NCBI GenBank assembly: GCA_018242625.1
Contig: JAFEBO010000006.1
Location: forward strand, 241,132 to 281,131
Source of the DNA: Planctomycetota bacterium
GTDB taxonomy: Bacteria > Planctomycetota > Phycisphaerae > Phycisphaerales > UBA1924
Direction of reading: 5' to 3'
DNA length: 40,000 bases
Positions 23,474 to 32,162 of the stretch are shown piece after piece (position 1 is the stretch's first letter; each line of letters begins with the position of its first letter). The notes under the pieces were generated by a model. The model saw only the letters and a list, made by a program, of their open reading frames with translations, made no database searches and was not told the origin of the DNA. The translations under genes were made by a program, and so were the position numbers.

Positions 23474-23830
23474 TCACTCCCCCTCATACACACACCCGCA
23501 CTTGGCCGTTTCCCGTAATTCAATCCGGTACATCCCCGGCAGCCCCGGCCGAATCCGCTCCCACAACCACTTCGTGATCCGCTCCGCCGTCGGATTCTCC
23601 AGCCCCTTCACCTCATTCAGACACCGGTGATCCAACTCCTCCACCACCGGGTCCACAATCTTCCTCATCTCCGAAAAATCCATCACCCACCCGCTCCGCT
23701 CCCCAATCTCGCCCCTCACATACACCACAAACCGGTACGAATGCCCGTGCATCCGCGCACACTTATGCCCCGCCGGCACGTGCGGCAGCCAGTGCGCCGC
23801 TTCAAACCCAAACTCCCGAAAAAGCATCAT
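23474..23830 (-). CDS. queD: 6-carboxy-5,6,7,8-tetrahydropterin synthase (high-GC, resident copy)
   Basis: ORF 23474..23881. The likely start is at MMLFREFGFEAAH (23830). QueD hallmarks are present: FEAAHWLP, HKCARMHGHSY, GWVMDF, LDHRCLNE. The Gly-rich extension upstream of the start is probably not translated. Confidence 0.88.
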   Translation of the reverse strand: MMLFREFGFEAAHWLPHVPAGHKCARMHGHSYRFVVYVRGEIGERSGWVMDFSEMRKIVDPVVEELDHRCLNEVKGLENPTAERITKWLWERIRPGLPGMYRIELRETAKCGCVYEGE

Positions 23831-23880
23831 CCCCGATGCTAGAGCCCCTCCCCCGCCCCCCGAAACCCCGCCTCCCCACA

Positions 23881-23915
23881 AGTGCCCAGTGACCAGTGAC
23901 CAGCGCCCAGCGCCC
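23881..23915. repeat. heptanucleotide tandem repeat, 5 units
   Basis: AGTGCCC AGTGACC AGTGACC AGCGCCC AGCGCCC read directly from the sequence. It lies between the frameshifted gene end (23936) and the queD start (23830). Confidence 0.9.
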
Positions 23916-23935
23916 CCCTCTCCCCCCTTGCCCCT

Positions 23936-24609
23936 TTAGCTCTTTGCCCCTTTCCCCATCTCCCCCTTCAACTCCAACACCTCCACCGGACACCCCTTCC
24001 AGTCATCCTCCCAGCACACCACCAGATCACACCCACTCGGATCGTGATCAAACCGGCTGCTCACAAACTCAAACTCGATCCGCACCCGCCTCCACTCCCA
24101 TCCACCAGCCTCCGCCCCTCACAATCCGGATACCCCGTCCCCACCGACTCCACCTCAAACCCAAGCCCTCGCGCCATCGCTCCAAACAACAACACCACCC
24201 CCTGCTCATTCACAGGCTCCCGCACCATCACCGACCCCTCGAGCGGCAGCCCCAGCCGCCTCCCAAATCGCTCCCCCTTCGTACGCCACGTCACCGCCTC
24301 CAAATCCCGAAAACTCCCAAAGAACTCCCTCCACCGCGGCAGCCACCGATCACACTCCGCCCGCGTCGGCCTCCGGTTCACCAATATCAACAAATCCCAA
24401 TACCGCTCCAAAACCTCCCGCGCACCAGGCATCTCATGCCGCGCATCCACCTCCACCCGCCTCAGCCGCCCCAACACCTCCTCCCAACTCCCCACCCCAC
24501 CCCCATTCCCACCCCCAACCCCCCCAAGCACACGCCCCCACACCCGCCCCATCTCAGCGCGTGCGGCGTCCCCCCCGCCACTCTCCATTGGCATCAGTCC
24601 ACCCCCCAA
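23936..24609 (-). pseudogene. frameshifted PD-(D/E)xK-like nuclease-fold gene
   Basis: ORF 24061..24609 ends 20 codons after ...VVLLFGAMARGLGFEVESVGTGYPDCEGRRLV. The -1 frame continues directly with WEWRRVRIEFEFVSSRFDHDPSGCDLVVCWEDDWKGCPVEVLELKGEMGKGAKS and stops at 23936. The two halves together form one coherent nuclease-like core (PD...E.R...IEFE...CD.VVCW). The frame switch must lie within 24088-24118. Confidence 0.6.
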
Positions 24610-24772
24610 AAAAGCAAAAACGCGCCACCCCCAAAGCCCACCACAGCCTCAGCCCGCACCCAAATTGCAAGAACCCCCAACCACCCTCAGTTTACCACAA
24701 CTCCCAAAATTCCAACCCCCCATTTTCCATCCCAACCGAAACAAAAACCCCATTCCCCCTTCCTCAACCCCT

Positions 24773-24787
24773 GTCTGCCAGGCAGAC
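24773..24787. promoter_or_regulatory. perfect 15-nt palindrome upstream of the HNH gene
   Basis: GTCTGCC-A-GGCAGAC, about 80 nt upstream of the ATG at 24865. The 1-nt spacer is too tight for a hairpin, so a dimeric protein-binding site is more plausible. Confidence 0.3.
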
Positions 24788-24864
24788 GCAAAGCAACCTC
24801 TTTTCCCCGCATCCGTTACGCTCTCTCCGTGCCACGCTTCCACGAAATCATCTCGCACCAGACC

Positions 24865-25635
24865 ATGTGCCACAACGAGCAGATGTCTCTTCAGCGTGGG
24901 ATGAACTTCCGCGTCCGCGCCGGCAAAGCCGGCTACTCCATCTTCCTCATGAGCGTTCGCAAAGGAGCCCCCTATCAGGACCACTGGCATGACGAGGCCG
25001 CAGGCGGCCCTCACGCCGGCATGCTCGAGTACGAAGGCCACGACGCTCCGAAAAACGTGGCGCTCCGCTCCGACCCAAAGAAAATCGACCAGCCCCAATT
25101 CCTGCCGAGCGGCAAGCCAACCGACAACGGCAAGTTCTATCAGGCCGCCATGGCCGCCAAGGCCGGCGCCGTCCCCGAAGTCGTTCAGGTTTACGAAAAG
25201 ATCGCCGATGGCCGGTGGTGCGATCGGGGGCGGTATCTTCTCGTCGATGCCGAGATCAAGACTGTTCCCATTTCAACGACGAGCAAGAAGACCCGGAAGG
25301 TCTTCCGTTTCTTTTTGAAGCCGACTGTGACCCCCGCCGCCCGTACCCGCGAAGAAGAACGCGAACTCTCAATCTCACGCCAAATCCCCACCGCTATCAA
25401 AATCGCCGTCTGGAATCGCGACCGCGGCAAGTGCGTCCAGTGCGGCAGCACCGACAACCTTCACTTCGATCATGACGTGCCACACTCCAAGGGCGGCTCC
25501 AGCTTCACCGAAGCCAACGTCAAGATCCTCTGTGCCCGCCACAATCTCGAAAAGTCGGACAAGATTCTGTCACTTGGCCCACTGCTCGGGCCACTGGTGG
25601 TTGCGGCGACGGCGTCGATGCTACGAGGAGCATAA
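24865..25635 (+). CDS. HNH endonuclease with N-terminal SRA/PUA-like putative modified-base-reader domain (type IV restriction-like)
   Basis: This is the 3' part of ORF 23896..25635; the Pro-rich 5' part is an antisense shadow. Candidate starts are 24865, 24883 and 24901. The C-terminus is a classic HNH: CVQCGSTDNLHFDHDVPHSKGG...NVKILCARHNLEKSDK. The N-terminal roughly 170 aa (GYSIFLMSVRKGAPYQDHWHDEAAG..MLEYEGHD...DQ...PEVVQVYEKIADGRWCDRGRYLLVD) follows the order of SRA/YDG-type domains as I remember them. The domain call is from memory, not from a search. Confidence 0.7.
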   Translation: MCHNEQMSLQRGMNFRVRAGKAGYSIFLMSVRKGAPYQDHWHDEAAGGPHAGMLEYEGHDAPKNVALRSDPKKIDQPQFLPSGKPTDNGKFYQAAMAAKAGAVPEVVQVYEKIADGRWCDRGRYLLVDAEIKTVPISTTSKKTRKVFRFFLKPTVTPAARTREEERELSISRQIPTAIKIAVWNRDRGKCVQCGSTDNLHFDHDVPHSKGGSSFTEANVKILCARHNLEKSDKILSLGPLLGPLVVAATASMLRGA

Positions 25636-25700: not shown

Positions 25701-27413
25701 ATGCGAAAACTGCTTGTACTAGGCTGCTCTTCCACCAAGCGCGACACGCACAACAAGCTGCCCGCGGTTGATCTTTACGATGGGCCGTTTTATCGCGTCC
25801 TTCGCACATTTCTACGAGATCACTTGTGGCCACAAGACTTATCAGTCGCGGTTTTGTCTGCTGAGTACGGACTGATGGGCGGCTTGACTCACATTCAAAC
25901 CTATGACCGCGTGATGACAAAGGAACGCGCCGTTCAGCTATCTGGTGATGTACGCCACACCCTTTTAGGCTGGCGGGACTGTCACTCGAGCATTCAATTA
26001 GTGCTCGGCGAAACGTACTTGGGCGCTATTCAACCAGCTGCAAATGAGCTTTGGCGACGAAGCGTCGATCTTGCAGCGGGTCCAATAGGGATGAAGCTGC
26101 AGTATTTGCACAATGCGCTTCATCGCGGCGCAAAGAAGGCCCCTCGATGCCGAGACGATGTGCCCAGCGCAGACGGACGCCCGATGTACTTCCTTCCGGA
26201 CTGGGATGACTTTGTCGATACGAATTTTGATTTTGTTCGAGACAAGTTTTCATGCAGTGCTCGGGCCGATCGAGATGAAACCCACTGTTCGGCGCTGGTA
26301 AAGCCAAAGCGGTTAGCAGATGGGATTCTGGTGAGCCTTGCCCAGAGCTTTGGGGGGAAGGGGCTGCTGAGAGCCCTCCAGGCGAGTTCGCCAGACTCTC
26401 TTGCACCCAAGCCTGTAAAACGGCATTTTGGGTTAGCGGATGACCAGTGGGCTTTCGGAGACTGCGGCGCCTTTAGTTATGTGAACGAAGAATCCCCGAC
26501 CATTTCGGTTGAGCAGGCTGTCGCTACCTACGAGTTGTACGGGTTTGATCTCGGCGCAAGCGTAGATCACATCCCGGTTCCCGAGGTCGTTAGAAAGGGA
26601 AAGCGCGTAACACTGACAGACGCGGAGCGTCGCAAGCGGGTAGCGCTCACTCGATCGAACGCGCAAGATTTTTTGGACTTGTGGCGCAGGCGCGAGTGCC
26701 GCTTTAACCCAGTGGGAATCGTTCAAGCCCTATCGCCTAGACAATTCGCCTCGTCGGTCGCTGAATACGCTGAAATGGGGTATCGCAGAATCGCGCTTGG
26801 TGGCCTAGTTCCCAGGTCCGACGACGAAATCTTGGCCATTGTGACCGCTGTGTGTAAGAAGATGAGCAGCCTTCGCCAGCGTCCCTGGCTTCACCTAATG
26901 GGCATTTATCGTCCAAACTTGCAAGCGGCGTTTCGTCGATTGCGCGTCGACAGCTTTGATAGCGCCACGTACTTTCGAAAAGCTTGGCTGCGGTCGGATC
27001 AAAACTATCTCGGGGCAACGGGCAATTGGTACGCAGCAATCCGGGTTCCGCCATCCCACGATCCTCGCACAGCGAAGCGCCTCGCCTCCACTGGTGTTTC
27101 GCTTTCAAAGATCCAGCGACTTGAAGCGGCGGCCCTTCAGGCCCTGCGCGCATATGCCGGAAGACGAATTGGAATAGAACGATGCCTCAAGTGCGTCCTC
27201 CACTACGATCTGTTGTTGCCACGTGGCGAGACAGACGCCAAGTCCATGGAAGAGGCCTATCGACGCACGCTTTCTGATCGGCCCTGGGAATTGTGCGAAT
27301 GCCCTATTTGCAAGAAAGTAGGAATTGACGTACTGATCTTCCGCGGGCTCAACCGCAACAAGCGTCGTGGGGCGCACAACACCCTTATGCTGTACAACAC
27401 TATTGCGCGATAA
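25701..27413 (+). CDS. DUF6884-like N-terminal domain fused to a TGT-fold transglycosylase (DpdA-like, putative DNA 7-deazaguanine transglycosylase)
   Basis: 570 aa. C-terminal TGT-fold landmarks occur in the expected order: FGDCGAFSY (cf. DSGGFQ), RIALGGLVPRSDDE (cf. AIGGLxVGE), LHLMGIYRP (cf. LMGVGxP), VDSFDSATYFRKA (cf. FDCVxPTRxA). The zinc site is CECPIC...GAHN (CxCxxC...H). The N-terminal roughly 150 aa, LLVLGCSSTKRD...PAVDLYDGPFY...VAVLSAEYGLMGG...IQTYDRVMT, matches the pattern I recall for DUF6884. Confidence 0.8.
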   Translation: MRKLLVLGCSSTKRDTHNKLPAVDLYDGPFYRVLRTFLRDHLWPQDLSVAVLSAEYGLMGGLTHIQTYDRVMTKERAVQLSGDVRHTLLGWRDCHSSIQLVLGETYLGAIQPAANELWRRSVDLAAGPIGMKLQYLHNALHRGAKKAPRCRDDVPSADGRPMYFLPDWDDFVDTNFDFVRDKFSCSARADRDETHCSALVKPKRLADGILVSLAQSFGGKGLLRALQASSPDSLAPKPVKRHFGLADDQWAFGDCGAFSYVNEESPTISVEQAVATYELYGFDLGASVDHIPVPEVVRKGKRVTLTDAERRKRVALTRSNAQDFLDLWRRRECRFNPVGIVQALSPRQFASSVAEYAEMGYRRIALGGLVPRSDDEILAIVTAVCKKMSSLRQRPWLHLMGIYRPNLQAAFRRLRVDSFDSATYFRKAWLRSDQNYLGATGNWYAAIRVPPSHDPRTAKRLASTGVSLSKIQRLEAAALQALRAYAGRRIGIERCLKCVLHYDLLLPRGETDAKSMEEAYRRTLSDRPWELCECPICKKVGIDVLIFRGLNRNKRRGAHNTLMLYNTIAR

Positions 27414-27454: not shown

Positions 27455-29887
27455 ATGCTGATAGAACCGGCAGATTTTGTTGGACGCTTGCAGGCCTCAA
27501 TACCACTCCAATTCGGCGCGAGACCGCCGAATCCGCGCCAGTTGGAATGTATTGAAGCACCCTTACAGGCGCCTTTGTTTATCGTCGCCGGTCCGGGAAC
27601 TGGCAAAACGACAGTGTTGGTGCTGCGGGCTCTTCGCATGGTTTTTGTGGAAGGCCTATTGCCCGAGCAGTTGCTGATTACGACCTTTACCCGAAAGGCG
27701 GCTGAAGAGTTGCGATCGCGGCTGCTCACTTGGGGAATGCAACTTCAAGAAAGTCTTGTGGCTCAGCCCCCTGCTCATTGGCAAGCTCAACACCGGGTGC
27801 GTTCAAACGCATTGGACTTGAATCGATTTGTAACTGGCACCCTTGATAGCGTTTGTGAGGACCTTCTTTCTCGAGCTCGCGAACCTGGAGAAATCACGCC
27901 AGCACTAATCGATGGATTTGTTGCGGACGCGCTTTTGTTGAGACACGCCGTCTATCCGTCTGGCGCTTATGCTGATGGTGCCATCGACCCTGATTTGGCC
28001 GCATATCTCGCCCAATTTAATTGGCAACAAGAAGCACCGACCAATGTCGGCGAATTGGTCAAACTGGTGCGGCTGGTAAGCGATCGGCTTACTCATGATT
28101 TGGCAGACGTAACACACTTTGCTGGAAGCTCCGCCCATTCCAACGCAAGACACAGGCTGGCGGATGTTCACGACCGCTATCGCCGGCATCTAGCGGCAGA
28201 ATATCGGCTGGATTTCTCCACACTTGAGCACACTTTTTTTACCAGGTTGGCGGCGGGTCGCCTGGATCGTGTACTTCACGGAATCGCTGCTGTGTTGGTA
28301 GATGAATACCAAGACACGAATCCCCTGCAAGAGCAAATCTACTTCACGCTCGCCGACCGCCTCGGTGCATCGCTCACCATCGTGGGCGACGACGATCAAT
28401 CACTCTACCGTTTTCGAGGCGCCACGGTGGAAATTTTTCGAGACTTCGTCGCGCGATGGACTGCAGCAGGGGGTGCAACACCCTCTGTCAAATTTCTCAT
28501 AGACAACTATCGCTCTACCCCAGAGATTGTTGCGTTTTTTAATGACTTTATCGAGAGCGATCCATCCTTTGCCGGTGCTCGTGTTACACCTCCCAAACCG
28601 AGAATTGTTCCACAGAGATCAAGCGTGCAGTTGCCCGTATTTGGGCTATTTCGACCGACTCGAGAGGATTTGGCGGACGCGATTTGTGGTATCGTCCGCG
28701 ATGTATTTCGCGGTAACGGTCATCGGGTGGTAGCAAATGGTCAAACCTATTTGATAGAGCGTGCCGCGTCCGGTGGAGATGTCGGCGACTCCGTGCTCCT
28801 CTCTCACTCTGTGGAGGAGTTTAAAGAGACAAGAGGGCAAACCCCGCCGGAAGCCAGACTTCCCGCGCTCCTTCGAGTACGACTTGGGCCGACCATAAAT
28901 GTTTACAACCCGCGAGGCAGATCGCTTCGCGATGTACCGGAGGTTCAACAACTCCTGGGACTCATGCTTGAGTGTATTGACCCCGATCAACCGAATGGGG
29001 CGGCGGGCGGGATCCAAGCCTCAATGAGGTTGCGTCGGGATTCACAAAGATACCTGCCAATCTGGCGTGACGCCGCAAGAGCATTGATCGCCACCAACCC
29101 CGAACCGCGATCACCCCATCGGCTTAGAGATTTTGTGGACGGCTGGCAACGACGAGTGCCGCAATCTGCAGCCGTGGGAGCTTGGCCACAGGAATGGCCT
29201 GCGCTTGATCTATTCTTTAAGCTCCTCGTGTGGCTTCCTGAATTGCGGGCGAGCCCAGAGGGGCAGGTATATTTGGAAGCGGTCGCCCGCGCAATTGCAG
29301 CTTCGGCAACGGTTTCAAATTATCGTTCGATGATCGTTTTTGGACAGACCCCCCACGGACAACAGAGCGTCAGCTCGTTCATTTCTTCGGTACTGCAGCC
29401 CCTCGCGGAATCGGCGGTGGATATTGACGAAGAGGTCATGCCGGATGTGCCCCGGTCGGCGTTTCCGATCATGACGATACACCAAGCCAAGGGCTTGGAG
29501 TTTCCACTCGTCTTTGTTGACGTTGGATCGGACTATAAAAGAGAACACCCACTGAATCGCTTTAAGCGACATCCAACTCAGCCAGATGGTGTACATAACT
29601 TAGAAGACGACCTGGCTCATTGCACCCCCGTCGGCGCTTCTCGCACCAGCCGCGACGGAATTACTCGCGCGTTTGACGACCTGCGAAGACTTTATTACGT
29701 GGCATACAGCAGGCCGGAGACGGTGTTAATTCTCGTTGGGCTGAACAAGTGTCTGGAAGTCGCCCGACCGCTCCCGCATGTTGCGACTTGGTACCGGCAG
29801 GATGGCTCCTGGGCGTGGCTTTTGCAGCCACCTGGTCAACGCAGGCGACCCGCGATGCCCAATTCACTCCCACTCACATTGATATAG
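27455..29887 (+). CDS. UvrD/PcrA-type SF1 DNA helicase
   Basis: ORF 27416..29887 has a TTG at 27416, but an ATG at 27455 follows GAGGTGG. The SF1 motifs are: I AGPGTGKTT, Ia TFTRKAAEEL, II VLVDEYQDTNPLQ, III TIVGDDDQSLYRFRGA, IV NYRSTPEIV, V TIHQAKGLEFPLVFV, VI RRLYYVAYSRPETVLIL. Confidence 0.92.
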   Translation: MLIEPADFVGRLQASIPLQFGARPPNPRQLECIEAPLQAPLFIVAGPGTGKTTVLVLRALRMVFVEGLLPEQLLITTFTRKAAEELRSRLLTWGMQLQESLVAQPPAHWQAQHRVRSNALDLNRFVTGTLDSVCEDLLSRAREPGEITPALIDGFVADALLLRHAVYPSGAYADGAIDPDLAAYLAQFNWQQEAPTNVGELVKLVRLVSDRLTHDLADVTHFAGSSAHSNARHRLADVHDRYRRHLAAEYRLDFSTLEHTFFTRLAAGRLDRVLHGIAAVLVDEYQDTNPLQEQIYFTLADRLGASLTIVGDDDQSLYRFRGATVEIFRDFVARWTAAGGATPSVKFLIDNYRSTPEIVAFFNDFIESDPSFAGARVTPPKPRIVPQRSSVQLPVFGLFRPTREDLADAICGIVRDVFRGNGHRVVANGQTYLIERAASGGDVGDSVLLSHSVEEFKETRGQTPPEARLPALLRVRLGPTINVYNPRGRSLRDVPEVQQLLGLMLECIDPDQPNGAAGGIQASMRLRRDSQRYLPIWRDAARALIATNPEPRSPHRLRDFVDGWQRRVPQSAAVGAWPQEWPALDLFFKLLVWLPELRASPEGQVYLEAVARAIAASATVSNYRSMIVFGQTPHGQQSVSSFISSVLQPLAESAVDIDEEVMPDVPRSAFPIMTIHQAKGLEFPLVFVDVGSDYKREHPLNRFKRHPTQPDGVHNLEDDLAHCTPVGASRTSRDGITRAFDDLRRLYYVAYSRPETVLILVGLNKCLEVARPLPHVATWYRQDGSWAWLLQPPGQRRRPAMPNSLPLTLI

Positions 29888-29895
29888 GGAATTCC

Positions 29896-31077
29896 ATGCC
29901 CATCGGAAATCGACGATTGCCATTGGTCCTGCCCCGCTACAGCTTGACGGGCGATCTTCTTTCTTTTCGGCGTTGCCCCCTTCAATACCGGTATTTGAAC
30001 GGAAGCAAGCTCCCGCCTTCCAGGCCCGTTCAGCTCTGGTTTGGCGAGTTTATTCATGGCGTTCTTGAGATGTCGTATCGCATCTGGCGGGATACTACTC
30101 CCAGGCTCTCTTTTCCTTGGCCTGAACATCGAGCGGACTGGCGCGCAGAGCCCGATCCAACATGGGCAACACATGATATTGGGCGGATTGGCTATTCAGT
30201 CGAACAGGCATTGCGAGCACAAGGAAAGAGTTCCCGCGATAGGGACGCTCGTGAAGCGGCTTATCGACGAGCGTTTAGGGCGGTGAACGACATCGGGCCG
30301 CATCTTTTTCCACTCGTAGTTGCGGCAGAGGAAAAAATCATTGGTACGAGGCTGGTTGGCGGCGGACCAACTCAGGGTCGTACCGACCGATACGAATTGC
30401 ACGGCATTGTTGACGTGCTTACAAGTCTCACCCTTGGGATGGTGGATCGTTCAAATCTCATCCGCACGGCGATACAAGATGTTACGTCCGGGCTCAACGG
30501 CAATTACGAGGTCATCGTCGACTATAAGGGTGCGCGGCGGCCCGACTTGGCGGATCCAGATCGACCATATTGGCAACAGGGCGAATGGCAGGTGCTTACC
30601 TACGCATGGCTGCGCGGGCGTCAACCCGGTGCAATTCCTGTTGCTGCGGGCGTTCTGCTTTACATTAACGAACTCTCTCCGGGCCAGGACGATATCGCGG
30701 CAATGAAGCGGGCGCTTAGTTCCAACAATTCAGACGTGCTTCCAGCGCAAGGAACTGCGGATTGGTATGCACTGACAAACTGGAGACCTGGACTTCAAAT
30801 CCCCGCGCTAACGGACGAGTTTCGATTCAAACGAACCATTCGCGTTGTTCCTGTAGACCAGAGTCGGGTTAATGCTGCGCTGTCTGCATTTGACTCTGTT
30901 GTGAACGAGATTGAGCAGTGCGTCACTAGCGAACTGGTCGCGGGTACGATCGAACGACAATGGTCGCCGTGTGGGGACGAAGAAACCTGTAACGCATGCG
31001 ACTGTCGGTATTTTTGCCCTCATCCGGCTCCTCGCGGCCCTTCCTTGCGTCCCGTGGAGGCTCCGCATGCGCCTTAG
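29896..31077 (+). CDS. Cas4/AddB-like PD-(D/E)xK nuclease with C-terminal Fe-S cysteine cluster
   Basis: It lies inside ORF 29749..31077. The ATG at 29896 sits 8 nt after the helicase stop and follows AGGGA. The motifs are an N-terminal Cys (SFRRCPLQYRY), FGEFIHGVLE, GIVDVL, VIVDYKG (D-x-K), QVLTYAWL (QxxxY) and a C-terminal CNACDCRYFC (C-x2-C-x5-C). Confidence 0.85.
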   Translation: MPIGNRRLPLVLPRYSLTGDLLSFRRCPLQYRYLNGSKLPPSRPVQLWFGEFIHGVLEMSYRIWRDTTPRLSFPWPEHRADWRAEPDPTWATHDIGRIGYSVEQALRAQGKSSRDRDAREAAYRRAFRAVNDIGPHLFPLVVAAEEKIIGTRLVGGGPTQGRTDRYELHGIVDVLTSLTLGMVDRSNLIRTAIQDVTSGLNGNYEVIVDYKGARRPDLADPDRPYWQQGEWQVLTYAWLRGRQPGAIPVAAGVLLYINELSPGQDDIAAMKRALSSNNSDVLPAQGTADWYALTNWRPGLQIPALTDEFRFKRTIRVVPVDQSRVNAALSAFDSVVNEIEQCVTSELVAGTIERQWSPCGDEETCNACDCRYFCPHPAPRGPSLRPVEAPHAP

Positions 31078-31102: not shown

Positions 31103-31492
31103 CTATGAACTGGTCTCTTGGTCTTCTCCCCGATAGATGCAGCCGCATTTGGAGGTTTCAAAAAGCTCGAGCTTGCAGAGTCCGGGCATCGACGGCTTCA
31201 GTCGCGACCAAATCCAGCGAGCGATGACCTCGGCTGTCGGCACAGCTAGGCCTTCTATTTCGTTTAAATACTGATGATCCAGTTGGTCCACCACGGGGTC
31301 CACGTTGCGTCGAATCTCTGCAAAATCCATCACCCAGCCTGTGCTGCAATTGATTTGGCCACGGACGTGAACAACGAGTCGGTACGAGTGTCCGTGCAAC
31401 CGCGCGCACTTGTGTTCGGGCGGCACATTTGAAAGTCGATGTGCGGCTTCAAACCGAAACTCTCGAAATACAACCATGCCTCCATTGTACAT
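31103..31492 (-). CDS. queD: 6-carboxy-5,6,7,8-tetrahydropterin synthase (low-GC, island-borne second copy)
   Basis: ORF 31103..31534. The start is ambiguous: ATG at 31492 (MYNGGMVVF) or 31477 (MVVFREF). QueD hallmarks are FEAAHRL, HKCARLHGHSY, GWVMDF, LDHQYLNE. By hand ungapped alignment, 72 of 117 positions are identical to the copy at 23474-23830. Confidence 0.88.
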   Translation of the reverse strand: MYNGGMVVFREFRFEAAHRLSNVPPEHKCARLHGHSYRLVVHVRGQINCSTGWVMDFAEIRRNVDPVVDQLDHQYLNEIEGLAVPTAEVIARWIWSRLKPSMPGLCKLELFETSKCGCIYRGEDQETSS

Positions 31493-31553: not shown

Positions 31554-32162
31554 TCATCTGGTCGCGGCCAGAATCCTTATCCTCTCCCGCGGCAATCGCG
31601 CCGCCCCCACAAACGTCACCTCCTGCACCTCCGCCGCCGAAAACTCGCACGCCCCCGGCGGCAGGAACGTCCCGGCCCCCCTCGGCGATTTTCTGCCACC
31701 GCTGCACCTCGGCGCCCCGGAATTGAACCGGCAGAACTGCACGCCCGGATTCAGAGCCAACATCGCCTCGGTCTCCACCACCAACACCTTGCAGTCTTCC
31801 CCCGCATAACGCGCAAAGTGGTTGCGCCCCGCCACGATCGGCCCGCGCTCGTCTCCCGGCCAGAAGAACACTCTTTCATTGAGCAACTCAATCACGTCTT
31901 CGAAGCTCGTCCCCGGCTCCATCTCCATATTGCCGGCATGAAGCGGCGCCTGATCGCGCACATGCACCACCCGCTCACCGATCCGCAGCGTCAGGTGTTG
32001 CTTGCGCTTTTGTCGTAAGTAGGAAGTGTCCGCCGCCCGCTCCATCAGCACGCGCGCAGACTCTAGCAGTCCACCCTCCAGAATCGCGTCAACATTTGCC
32101 GCCGCCGTCAAATGAAAAAGCCGCGGCCGCCGCACTGCAAATTGCCAAAGGTCGATTCCCAT
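31554..32162 (-). CDS. hypothetical protein, possible DarT-like (DUF4433-like) ADP-ribosyltransferase fold
   Basis: 202 aa, with GAGAAGG upstream of the ATG. LFHLTAAANVDAILEGGLL, then LRQKRK, FFWPG, FCRFNSGAP and a late AAEVQEVTF parallel the H-x-T / R / N / E-containing segments of DarT as I recall them. This is weak, by-eye similarity only. Confidence 0.55.
   Translation of the reverse strand: MGIDLWQFAVRRPRLFHLTAAANVDAILEGGLLESARVLMERAADTSYLRQKRKQHLTLRIGERVVHVRDQAPLHAGNMEMEPGTSFEDVIELLNERVFFWPGDERGPIVAGRNHFARYAGEDCKVLVVETEAMLALNPGVQFCRFNSGAPRCSGGRKSPRGAGTFLPPGACEFSAAEVQEVTFVGAARLPRERIRILAATR

Follow-up and report, generated by a model that had tools for sequence, protein, structure and literature searches.

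A DUF6884–DpdA fusion gene and its compact, DpdB-less cassette in a Planctomycetota bacterium

A stretch of 40,000 nucleotides from a Planctomycetota bacterium (assembly GCA_018242625.1, contig JAFEBO010000006.1, positions 241,132 to 281,131), hereafter the window, carries at 25701..27413 on the + strand one uninterrupted open reading frame (ORF) with an ATG start. It encodes a protein of 570 amino acids (aa) in which a DUF6884 domain, resembling DpdC, is joined to the N-terminus of a DpdA-type DNA-guanine transglycosylase. DpdA and DpdC belong to Dpd, a system of about eleven genes that is, to our knowledge, the largest and the least understood of the restriction-modification systems. The fusion gene stands in a short cassette with genes for a UvrD/AddA-like helicase, a Cas4/AddB-like nuclease and QueD, an enzyme of the pathway to preQ0 (7-cyano-7-deazaguanine), and the window holds neither a DpdB nor a DndB homologue.

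The fusion gene and its two domains

An earlier description of this DNA, made from its letters and translated ORFs (the sequence-only reading), had reported a single unbroken frame of 570 aa with a series of motifs, all of which are indeed present, and had taken the protein to be a genuine fusion of DUF6884 with DpdA, which the Pfam and NCBIfam matches above their cut-offs confirm. The protein is encoded identically in an NCBI metagenome-assembled genome (MAG) of Phycisphaerales (GCA_046350515.1, contig JAXMAH010000001.1; protein P0001) and in independent Logan assemblies. When a large protein database was surveyed for the same architecture, at least 120 full-length relatives with 53-73% identity were found, each of them with both Pfam domains, in Phycisphaerales, Gemmataceae, Planctomycetaceae, Nitrospira and many metagenomes, and genome and metagenome scans added Acidobacteriaceae, Terriglobia and Thermoanaerobaculia. 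A scan with the family alignment retrieved 390 metagenome stretches with relatives of the fusion, and a single-sequence scan of genome contigs gave 4 loci; the frame was continuous in the 80 metagenome loci examined. Among GenBank phages the family is essentially absent, with one partial match that covers DpdA only. In the databases the fusion proteins are named “tRNA-guanine transglycosylase DpdA” or “hypothetical” only, and the architecture is therefore invisible to standard annotation and to genome mining anchored on dpdAB.

Profile searches placed the two domains side by side, DUF6884 at residues 6-137 and DpdA at residues 163-568, and the AlphaFold2 model of the whole protein was confident for both (predicted local distance difference test, pLDDT, 89.9; predicted template modelling score, pTM, 0.87). 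They are connected by a poorly conserved linker of 18 residues (residues 142-159; 26124..26177, + strand), which is the least conserved part of the family alignment (mean top-residue frequency 0.43) and has a pLDDT of ~79-85.

The DpdA domain comprises residues 160-570 (26178..27410, + strand). It scored 346 bits with the NCBIfam DpdA equivalog NF041059, for which the cut-off is 200, in a match to profile positions 3-403 of 406; the fusion protein scored 329 bits with the PADLOC DpdA model, and the match to the crystallised Salmonella DpdA (7UI4) runs end to end over residues 160-568 (E 2e-70). The homology thus begins near residue 160 (at YFLPDWDD) and not near residue 250, where the sequence-only reading had placed the first landmarks of a tRNA-guanine transglycosylase (TGT). 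Foldseek aligned the AlphaFold model with 7UI4 over 412 columns (E 5e-34, target TM-score 0.86), and the model shows the same TIM-barrel fold with the large insertion that is specific to DpdA. In Salmonella DpdA, Asp95 is the general acid/base, Asp256 the nucleophile, Phe99 a gate, and Asp130 serves in base recognition (PMC10164549). An explicit alignment with the Enterobacter orthologue of this enzyme was used for mapping these residues to D254, D420, F258 and D289 of the fusion protein, respectively, the Gly206/207 pair to G367/G368 (the GG loop), the zinc ligands to C532, C534, C537 and H559 (a CxCxxC...H site), and His181, another position of base recognition, to Gln342. Across 71 homologues D254, D420, D289, F258 and the ligands C532/C534/C537/H559 are invariant. 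A Gln in the place of His181 is also found in the cyanobacterial and Paenibacillus DpdAs and in that of a locus with split genes (L017, see below), and so it is a trait of a subgroup and no defect. With its catalytic and zinc-binding residues all in place the DpdA half is, as far as its sequence indicates, catalytically complete, and by analogy with the conserved Salmonella mechanism it would be expected to exchange guanine for preQ0 in double-stranded DNA (dsDNA).

The N-terminal domain comprises residues 1-141 (25701..26123, + strand), as delimited by Pfam, PADLOC and fold. It matched Pfam DUF6884 (PF21818) with 35.6 bits against a gathering threshold of 30 over profile positions 3-134 of 135, and the N-terminal 200 aa alone reached 38.6 bits against the same threshold. 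Its motifs are CxxxK (here C9-S-S-T-K13), PA..LYDGP (residues 21-29), LSAxxG (L52-S-A-E-Y-G57), Y68, G103/Y106 and GPIG (127-130). In an alignment of 120 sequences C9, S10, K13, P21, A22, Y26, D27, G28 and P29 are invariant, as are S53, A54, G57, G60, Y68, G103, Y106, G127, I129 and G130, a pattern which points to selection on the motif residues. CxxxK and LSAxxG have been flagged by the Pfam curators as the probable active site of DUF6884 (PMC11701544).

Residues 1-150, when modelled separately, gave a pLDDT of 93.6, and the only fold match in the PDB with E≤0.001 was E. coli YaaA (5CAJ; E 6e-4, probability 1.00, query TM-score 0.56); models of YaaA proteins and of phage DUF6884 proteins (the latter with E 6e-12 to 3e-7) were matched as well. 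The predicted structure is thus the YaaA-like alpha/beta “cantaloupe” fold, in agreement with the Pfam study (PMC11701544). A sequence search of the PDB with the domain returned nothing, and an hhalign comparison with the single YaaA sequence was uninformative. By eye, the N-terminus of YaaA (“ILISPAK”) appears to be without a Cys; within DUF6884 the CxxxK motif is shared. Among 1.84 billion representative sequences the domain retrieved 1296 clusters (E≤1e-3); for the most part these are proteins of 140-260 aa that stand alone. The closest standalone DUF6884 protein (P0121) lies on a contig of 1.2 kb, the context of which is uninformative. One giant protein of 3221 aa (P0169) has a single C-terminal match to the domain, and the ten matched stretches of a 1657-aa cadherin/Ig-repeat protein (P0161) are probably spurious. 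By every computational measure applied, the fusion protein is both a DpdA and a member of DUF6884.

The helicase–nuclease–QueD cassette

Downstream of the fusion gene and on the same strand lies the gene of its conserved partner, a helicase of superfamily 1 (SF1) with 810 aa (27455..29887, +; PF00580, E 5e-44, with a weak UvrD_C match). The models of AddA, PcrA and RecB matched below their cut-offs, the best equivalog being AddA with 130 bits against a cut-off of 708, and UvrD scoring 106 against 1144; PADLOC models of the GajB type also match. The next gene (29896..31077, +) encodes a PD-(D/E)XK nuclease of 393 aa that resembles Cas4 and AddB (PF12705, E 4e-12, weak Cas4 matches) and ends in a cluster of Cys residues (CGDEETCNACDCRYFC); a PDB sequence search with it returned nothing. 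One codon of the nuclease gene, at position 30823, is CGA (Arg) in the window and likewise in an independent Logan contig; in the NCBI MAG record it is TGA, which shortens the nuclease to 309 aa with loss of the Cys cluster. This is the sole difference in 21.7 kb, and it reflects either an error of assembly or a polymorphism in the population by which the nuclease is inactivated.

A gene for QueD (6-carboxytetrahydropterin synthase, of the preQ0 pathway) follows on the opposite strand at the end of a block of low GC content (31103..31477, -; TIGR03367 105.5 bits against 89.25, PF01242 E 6e-37). The region is bracketed by a second QueD paralogue just outside this block, in host-like GC (23474..23830, -; TIGR03367 102.1 bits against 89.25); about two-thirds of the first 60 residues are identical between the two. 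They may represent a host copy and an island copy, or a trace of the insertion of the island, and the paralogue at 23474..23830 may or may not belong to the system. The cassette block has 53-57% GC against 60-66% in the flanks. No tRNA genes or Rfam matches that would mark the ends of an island were found in the window.

Neighbouring genes were counted at 90 related loci, and for the helicase and the nuclease the loci that were informative served as the denominators. Of 79 informative loci, 65 have the helicase directly downstream of the fusion, and in 4 more loci it lies elsewhere; for the nuclease, 49 of 62 informative loci have it downstream. QueD homologues occur at 24 of the 90 fusion loci and QueC at 13. 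A separate DpdC was found at none of the 90, and a DpdB-like protein at one, with a weak match at 29% identity, so that the lack of a DpdB partner, which the sequence-only reading had pointed out for this locus, extends to its relatives. PADLOC gave no match to DpdD-K among the neighbours, and across 91 fusion loci no second ORF resembling DUF6884 or DpdC was seen.

Some loci have HerA (DUF87) and a NurA-like protein in the place of the helicase-nuclease pair. Two examples (L028:3960-7639 and L030:3063-6898) have the HerA-type ATPase together with a partner of ~610-660 aa, which gave a weak NurA-like match in L030 and no Pfam match in L028. A protein of ~315 aa recurs upstream or downstream in 19 of the 90 loci (e.g., L007:8954-9907, L009:8915-9862, L028:8307-9269); it has no Pfam, PADLOC or PDB match and might add a fourth component to the system. 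Other neighbours of the fusion loci are integrases, TraG/TrwC, MmeI, Type ISP restriction enzymes and TIR proteins. A conserved modification gene with swappable motor-nuclease effectors and a precursor gene, within a mobile block of low GC that lies among further defence genes, resembles a defence cassette of the restriction-modification kind. The sequence-only reading had missed this cassette, which is the more novel part of the locus: the fusion proves less mysterious than that reading had supposed, and the compact arrangement without DpdB is the more interesting finding.

The Dpd system of Salmonella Montevideo, with DpdA/B/C for modification and DpdD-K for restriction, is the natural comparison. 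Both have a DpdA with an identical catalytic apparatus, a module of the DpdC superfamily, preQ0 genes (QueD, QueC), a location in mobile or defence islands and a pairing of helicase with nuclease. The locus described here differs in that a minimal DpdC-like part of ~140 aa is fused to the N-terminus of DpdA, in the lack of the DndB/ParB-like ATPase DpdB, and in having Gln342 for His181. Its restriction arm would be the UvrD-like helicase with the Cas4/AddB-like PD-(D/E)XK nuclease, or HerA with the NurA-like protein, in place of the canonical dpdD-dpdK operon, which includes SNF2 and DEAD helicases and the phospholipase D (PLD) nuclease DpdK, none of them present at this locus. Since it has neither DpdB nor DpdD-K, it is no canonical Dpd island.

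An SF1 UvrD-like motor paired with a PD-(D/E)XK nuclease bearing a Cys cluster of the iron–sulphur (Fe-S) type recalls AddAB/AdnAB, Cas4-type machines and the UvrD-like GajB of Gabija; here, however, the proteins score far below the equivalog cut-offs, and they are two distinct, smaller proteins in strict linkage with a gene for DNA modification. The phage DpdAs (9g, CAjan) likewise act as DNA transglycosylases with no DpdB gene in their element; they differ in having a single domain, in belonging to other DpdA subgroups and in protecting phage DNA from restriction. A seven-component HerA/TGT system termed “BRC” (PMC12839542) was considered and rejected as a different assembly. The sequence-only reading had noted that it knew of no description of the fusion. 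None was found, either of the fusion or of the cassette with its three genes, in the literature searched; as this did not include the 2016 PNAS paper that founded the subject, nor certain reviews, the negative is no proof of absence.

Kinship with DpdC and a putative one-polypeptide writer

In the Dpd modification module, for which the activities of DpdA, DpdB and DpdC have been established, DpdC is the third enzyme; it converts DNA-bound preQ0 to ADG (7-amido-7-deazaguanine) and acts independently of DpdA/B in vitro (PMC10164549). Older papers called it DUF328/YaaA-like, and the GATOR-GC study listed DUF6884 as its domain. A genuine DpdC, from the dpd cluster of an Enterobacter plasmid, scored 470 bits with the PADLOC DpdC model and 23.6 bits with DUF6884, below the cut-off; its YaaA match was weak too, and both matches covered the N-terminal part. 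Many close DpdC relatives or clusters carry a precomputed PF21818 match. On the Enterobacter cloacae plasmid pPOL9A this DpdC, at L010:8061-8912 upstream of dpdA, is a “hypothetical protein” in RefSeq, and its annotated start (283 aa) appears to clip ~35 N-terminal residues that include CxxxK, most relatives having 318 aa.

The fusion is bridged to DpdC by two longer proteins that are annotated as “dpdA”, from Allocoleopsis PCC 7113 (pMIC7113.07, 698 aa) and Paenibacillus sp. 37 (pART37, 689 aa). Both have N-terminal extensions of ~290 aa, with DUF6884 scores of 41.3 and 47.2 bits, respectively, above the cut-off, and with matches to the DpdC model that start from the first residues (E 1e-9 and 5e-14). 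Like the protein described here they have a DUF6884/DpdC-like part followed by DpdA, no separate DpdC, and QueD or QueCDE nearby; they differ in that their N-terminal part includes the insertions and tail of DpdC and in their neighbours, which are DndB/DpdB, a DpdJ-like helicase and PLD/DpdK instead of the UvrD-like helicase and the PD-(D/E)XK nuclease. Both stand in classical dpd clusters, that of Allocoleopsis with QueD, DndB, a DEAD-box helicase and PLD, that of pART37 with QueCDE, YhhQ and DpdJ. Six-frame searches of the two clusters revealed no other DpdC-like ORF, and the fused domain thus fills the slot of DpdC. The pART37 cluster also has a P-loop NTPase of 1055 aa and a short TGT-like gene (L022:11203-12126, 307 aa, annotated “queuine tRNA-ribosyltransferase”); the 19 kb inspected showed no DpdB.

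A MAFFT alignment of the N-terminal domain with a 318-aa DpdC (P0271) and the Allocoleopsis and Paenibacillus N-parts revealed a common series of motifs in the same order, which in DpdC reads as a strand with CxxxK (“TTCTNGK”), A..LYKGG, ILSAGLG, PY and GSPDY and is conserved within the DpdC family. An extended hhalign alignment covers DpdC residues ~34-212, to which MAFFT adds the strand and CxxxK at residues 1-14; DpdC has an insertion of ~35 residues after CxxxK and an extra C-terminal region of ~100 residues. A local hhalign alignment had paired the Cys of the domain wrongly with an internal Cys of DpdC, because the Enterobacter annotation is without the first 35 residues and because of the 35-residue insertion.

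DUF6884 and DpdA-type transglycosylases are met in other arrangements as well. On one IMG/VR contig (L017) a DUF6884 gene of 178 aa is followed by an adjacent DpdA gene of 443 aa, and four proteins (P0163, P0168, P0212, P0231) are fused in the reverse order, with the TGT domain before DUF6884. An 86-kb IMG/VR contig holds a decayed form (L018:4500-4810), a DUF6884 remnant with “ILPCSKKK” and “GKIGERM” in different frames and stops between them, upstream of UvrD-like and PD-(D/E)XK genes and of an intact, unfused DpdA. Fusions in both orders, together with the split and decayed forms, show that the two are functionally coupled. One of the reverse-order fusions (L104:3843-5468) follows a BrxC/BrxD-like AAA ATPase in an operon with no other annotation, which may represent another undescribed system of the deazaguanine type.

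Taken by its sequence, the N-terminal domain is best described as a bona fide member of DUF6884 and a distant, minimal relative of DpdC, but no DpdC orthologue. It falls short of DpdC in score and in length, but has the motifs and the genomic role of DpdC. To treat its function as unknown, as the sequence-only reading had done, was too pessimistic, since DUF6884 is a YaaA-fold family that includes DpdC. Of the three roles which that reading had considered, further tailoring of the base is the best supported, through this kinship; supply of the base found no support, and substitution for the missing DpdB has been weakened, as discussed below.

We consider it slightly better than an even bet, at a probability of about 0.55, that the fusion is a bifunctional writer, one polypeptide that makes 2′-deoxy-7-cyano-7-deazaguanosine (dPreQ0) and its amide dADG (2′-deoxy-7-amido-7-deazaguanosine), in a compact, Dpd-like restriction-modification system. 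The DpdA domain would flip guanine out of dsDNA and displace the base via a covalent intermediate between Asp420 and the deoxyribose, with Asp254 as the general acid/base, and insert preQ0 drawn from the queuosine pathway of the cell, the island-borne QueD presumably boosting the supply. The N-terminal domain, a minimal DpdC kept near the newly modified site by the fusion, would then hydrate the 7-cyano group of the DNA-bound preQ0 to the amide, i.e., to dADG, by analogy with DpdC. Cys9 would probably be the nucleophile, forming a thioimidate intermediate, and Lys13 the acid/base; no published report of the catalytic residues of DpdC was found in the literature searched, and this assignment is therefore one that we infer. 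The fusion to DpdA plausibly replaces the C-terminal region of DpdC as the element that targets DNA.

The mark would label the host’s own DNA, and the co-transcribed helicase and Cas4/AddB-like Fe-S PD-(D/E)XK nuclease may form the restriction arm, which unwinds and degrades incoming DNA that is unmarked. The ATP-dependent opening of DNA by DpdB may be provided by the UvrD-like or HerA motor. Alternatively, this step may be unnecessary, as for the phage DpdAs, that of phage 9g having modified plasmids in E. coli when expressed alone (PMC6884629).

Several observations weigh against the assignment of the N-terminal domain as a dADG-forming DpdC. It does not match DpdC at the level of the family, and its matches to the PADLOC DpdC models are weak and partial (PDLC02813, E 3e-5 over 59 residues, and PDLC02818, E 0.012), the candidate-defence model PDC-M57A being matched better (E 4e-9); hhalign against the enterobacterial DpdC family was weak (probability 26%, E 7e-4); and, with ~141 aa compared with ~300 aa in DpdC, it has neither the insertions nor the C-terminal ~100 residues. 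DUF6884 is also widespread outside 7-deazaguanine contexts, including phage proteins and B. subtilis YfjM, so that the generic activity of the family may be to bind DNA or to flip bases and not to hydrate nitriles. YfjM and YaaA, proteins of the same fold (DUF6884 and DUF328/PF03883, respectively) that share the LS[AG]xxG and PY motifs and a predicted positive cleft for DNA, are standalone and unlinked to 7-deazaguanine genes, and we know of no enzymatic activity for either. As regards independence from DpdB, Salmonella DpdA needs DpdB and ATP in vitro (PMC10164549).

The main rival of the two-step writer, which we regard as possible but clearly less probable, is that DUF6884 is an accessory that binds DNA or flips bases and replaces DpdB, helping DpdA to find and open its target, so that the final mark would be dPreQ0. 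The lack of DpdB in 89 of the 90 loci would fit this role, as would the binding of DNA by YaaA and the Pfam authors’ AlphaFold3 model of YfjM, in which a flipped nucleotide lies in a positively charged cleft (PMC11701544); the pTM of the whole protein suggests a rigid packing of the two domains, and most DUF6884 proteins are found without any 7-deazaguanine genes. DpdB is an ATPase, however, and there is no NTPase motif in DUF6884; a motor driven by ATP, be it UvrD-like or HerA, always lies close by and could itself act in place of DpdB. The Allocoleopsis fusion coexists with DndB/DpdB and is without a separate DpdC, which argues against a simple replacement of DpdB. The strict invariance of Cys9, Ser10 and Lys13 fits catalysis better than mere binding, and the intact DpdA beside the decayed DUF6884 of L018, although a single case, suggests that the module is dispensable for DpdA.

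It is rather unlikely that the domain performs some other chemistry on DNA or bases, e.g., conversion of the 7-substituent to something else, removal or repair of damaged bases, or release of preQ0 from its nucleoside, the mark then being a 7-deazaguanine other than dADG. The divergence of the domain from DpdC leaves room for this, phage studies keep revealing new 7-deazaguanine derivatives made by unexpected enzymes (PMC10516641), and pull-downs on abasic and RNA-base lesions recovered YfjM (PMC11701544). Against it, the cassette has no conserved gene for a cofactor or donor (amidotransferase, reductase or methyltransferase), and among the relatives of the domain the DpdC hydratase alone has been defined biochemically.

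Very improbable is the reading in which the protein is a tRNA transglycosylase, or the cassette a module for DNA repair or recombination (an end processor of the AddAB type), with a coincidental link to DNA marking and defence. It can appeal to the NCBI product name and to the likeness of UvrD-like and PD-(D/E)XK pairs to the AddAB repair enzymes, but the tRNA TGT matches are far weaker than those to DpdA (TIGR00449 20 bits against a cut-off of 47.6; Foldseek E ~1e-7 against 5e-34), the helicase is far below the AddA, UvrD and RecB cut-offs, the low-GC block is mobile and lies beside integrases and other defence genes, and the helicase-nuclease pairs are swapped between loci. That the fusion is an artefact, such as a frameshift from sequencing or assembly that joined two genes, as the separate adjacent genes of L017 might suggest, is effectively refuted by the identical ORF in independent assemblies, by the single frame in its homologues and in the metagenome loci examined, and by the short linker and confident model.

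Beyond the two-step writer itself, we give somewhat less than even odds to the wider proposal of a self-contained, DpdB-independent 7-deazaguanine restriction-modification system of three genes, undescribed so far, in which one polypeptide would insert preQ0 and make dADG and an AddAB-like machine (or HerA/NurA) would read the mark and destroy unmarked DNA, and which would occur widely in Planctomycetota, Acidobacteriota and Nitrospirota and in metagenomes from soil and sediment. The family would then be a natural minimal Dpd, a single writer protein with a two-protein effector, which should be much easier to reconstitute. The DpdC core of ~140 aa with its invariant Cys and Lys is the likely catalytic unit, and the orphan family DUF6884, a large one, gains a concrete functional lead. 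A one-gene writer of dPreQ0/dADG, if it is one, would be a useful tool for site-specific labelling of DNA.

Other features of the locus

The gene right after the cassette, at 31554..32162 on the - strand, encodes a protein that matches DUF7002 (PF22531, E 3.5e-27) and, faintly, a DarT-like PADLOC model (E 0.007); none of the other fusion loci was found to have it. Directly upstream of the fusion gene, at 24829..25635 on the + strand, a protein of 268 aa with an HNH motif is encoded; its PF01844 score of 20.9 bits is under the cut-off of 21.4, and there is a weak match to the HNH of IscB-like proteins. It was considered as a member of the cassette and rejected, since no homologue was found at any of the other 90 loci and the protein is specific to this one.

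A further oddity is a stretch of ~1 kb at ~23850..24800 that is extremely rich in C and A and poor in G on the + strand (GC skew ~-0.6, AT skew +0.28). It is without a tRNA or Rfam match and holds short CCCCCTTT and CCCCACACCCAC arrays, and it yields a spurious, proline-rich ORF of 579 aa (23896..25635) that runs into the real HNH gene.

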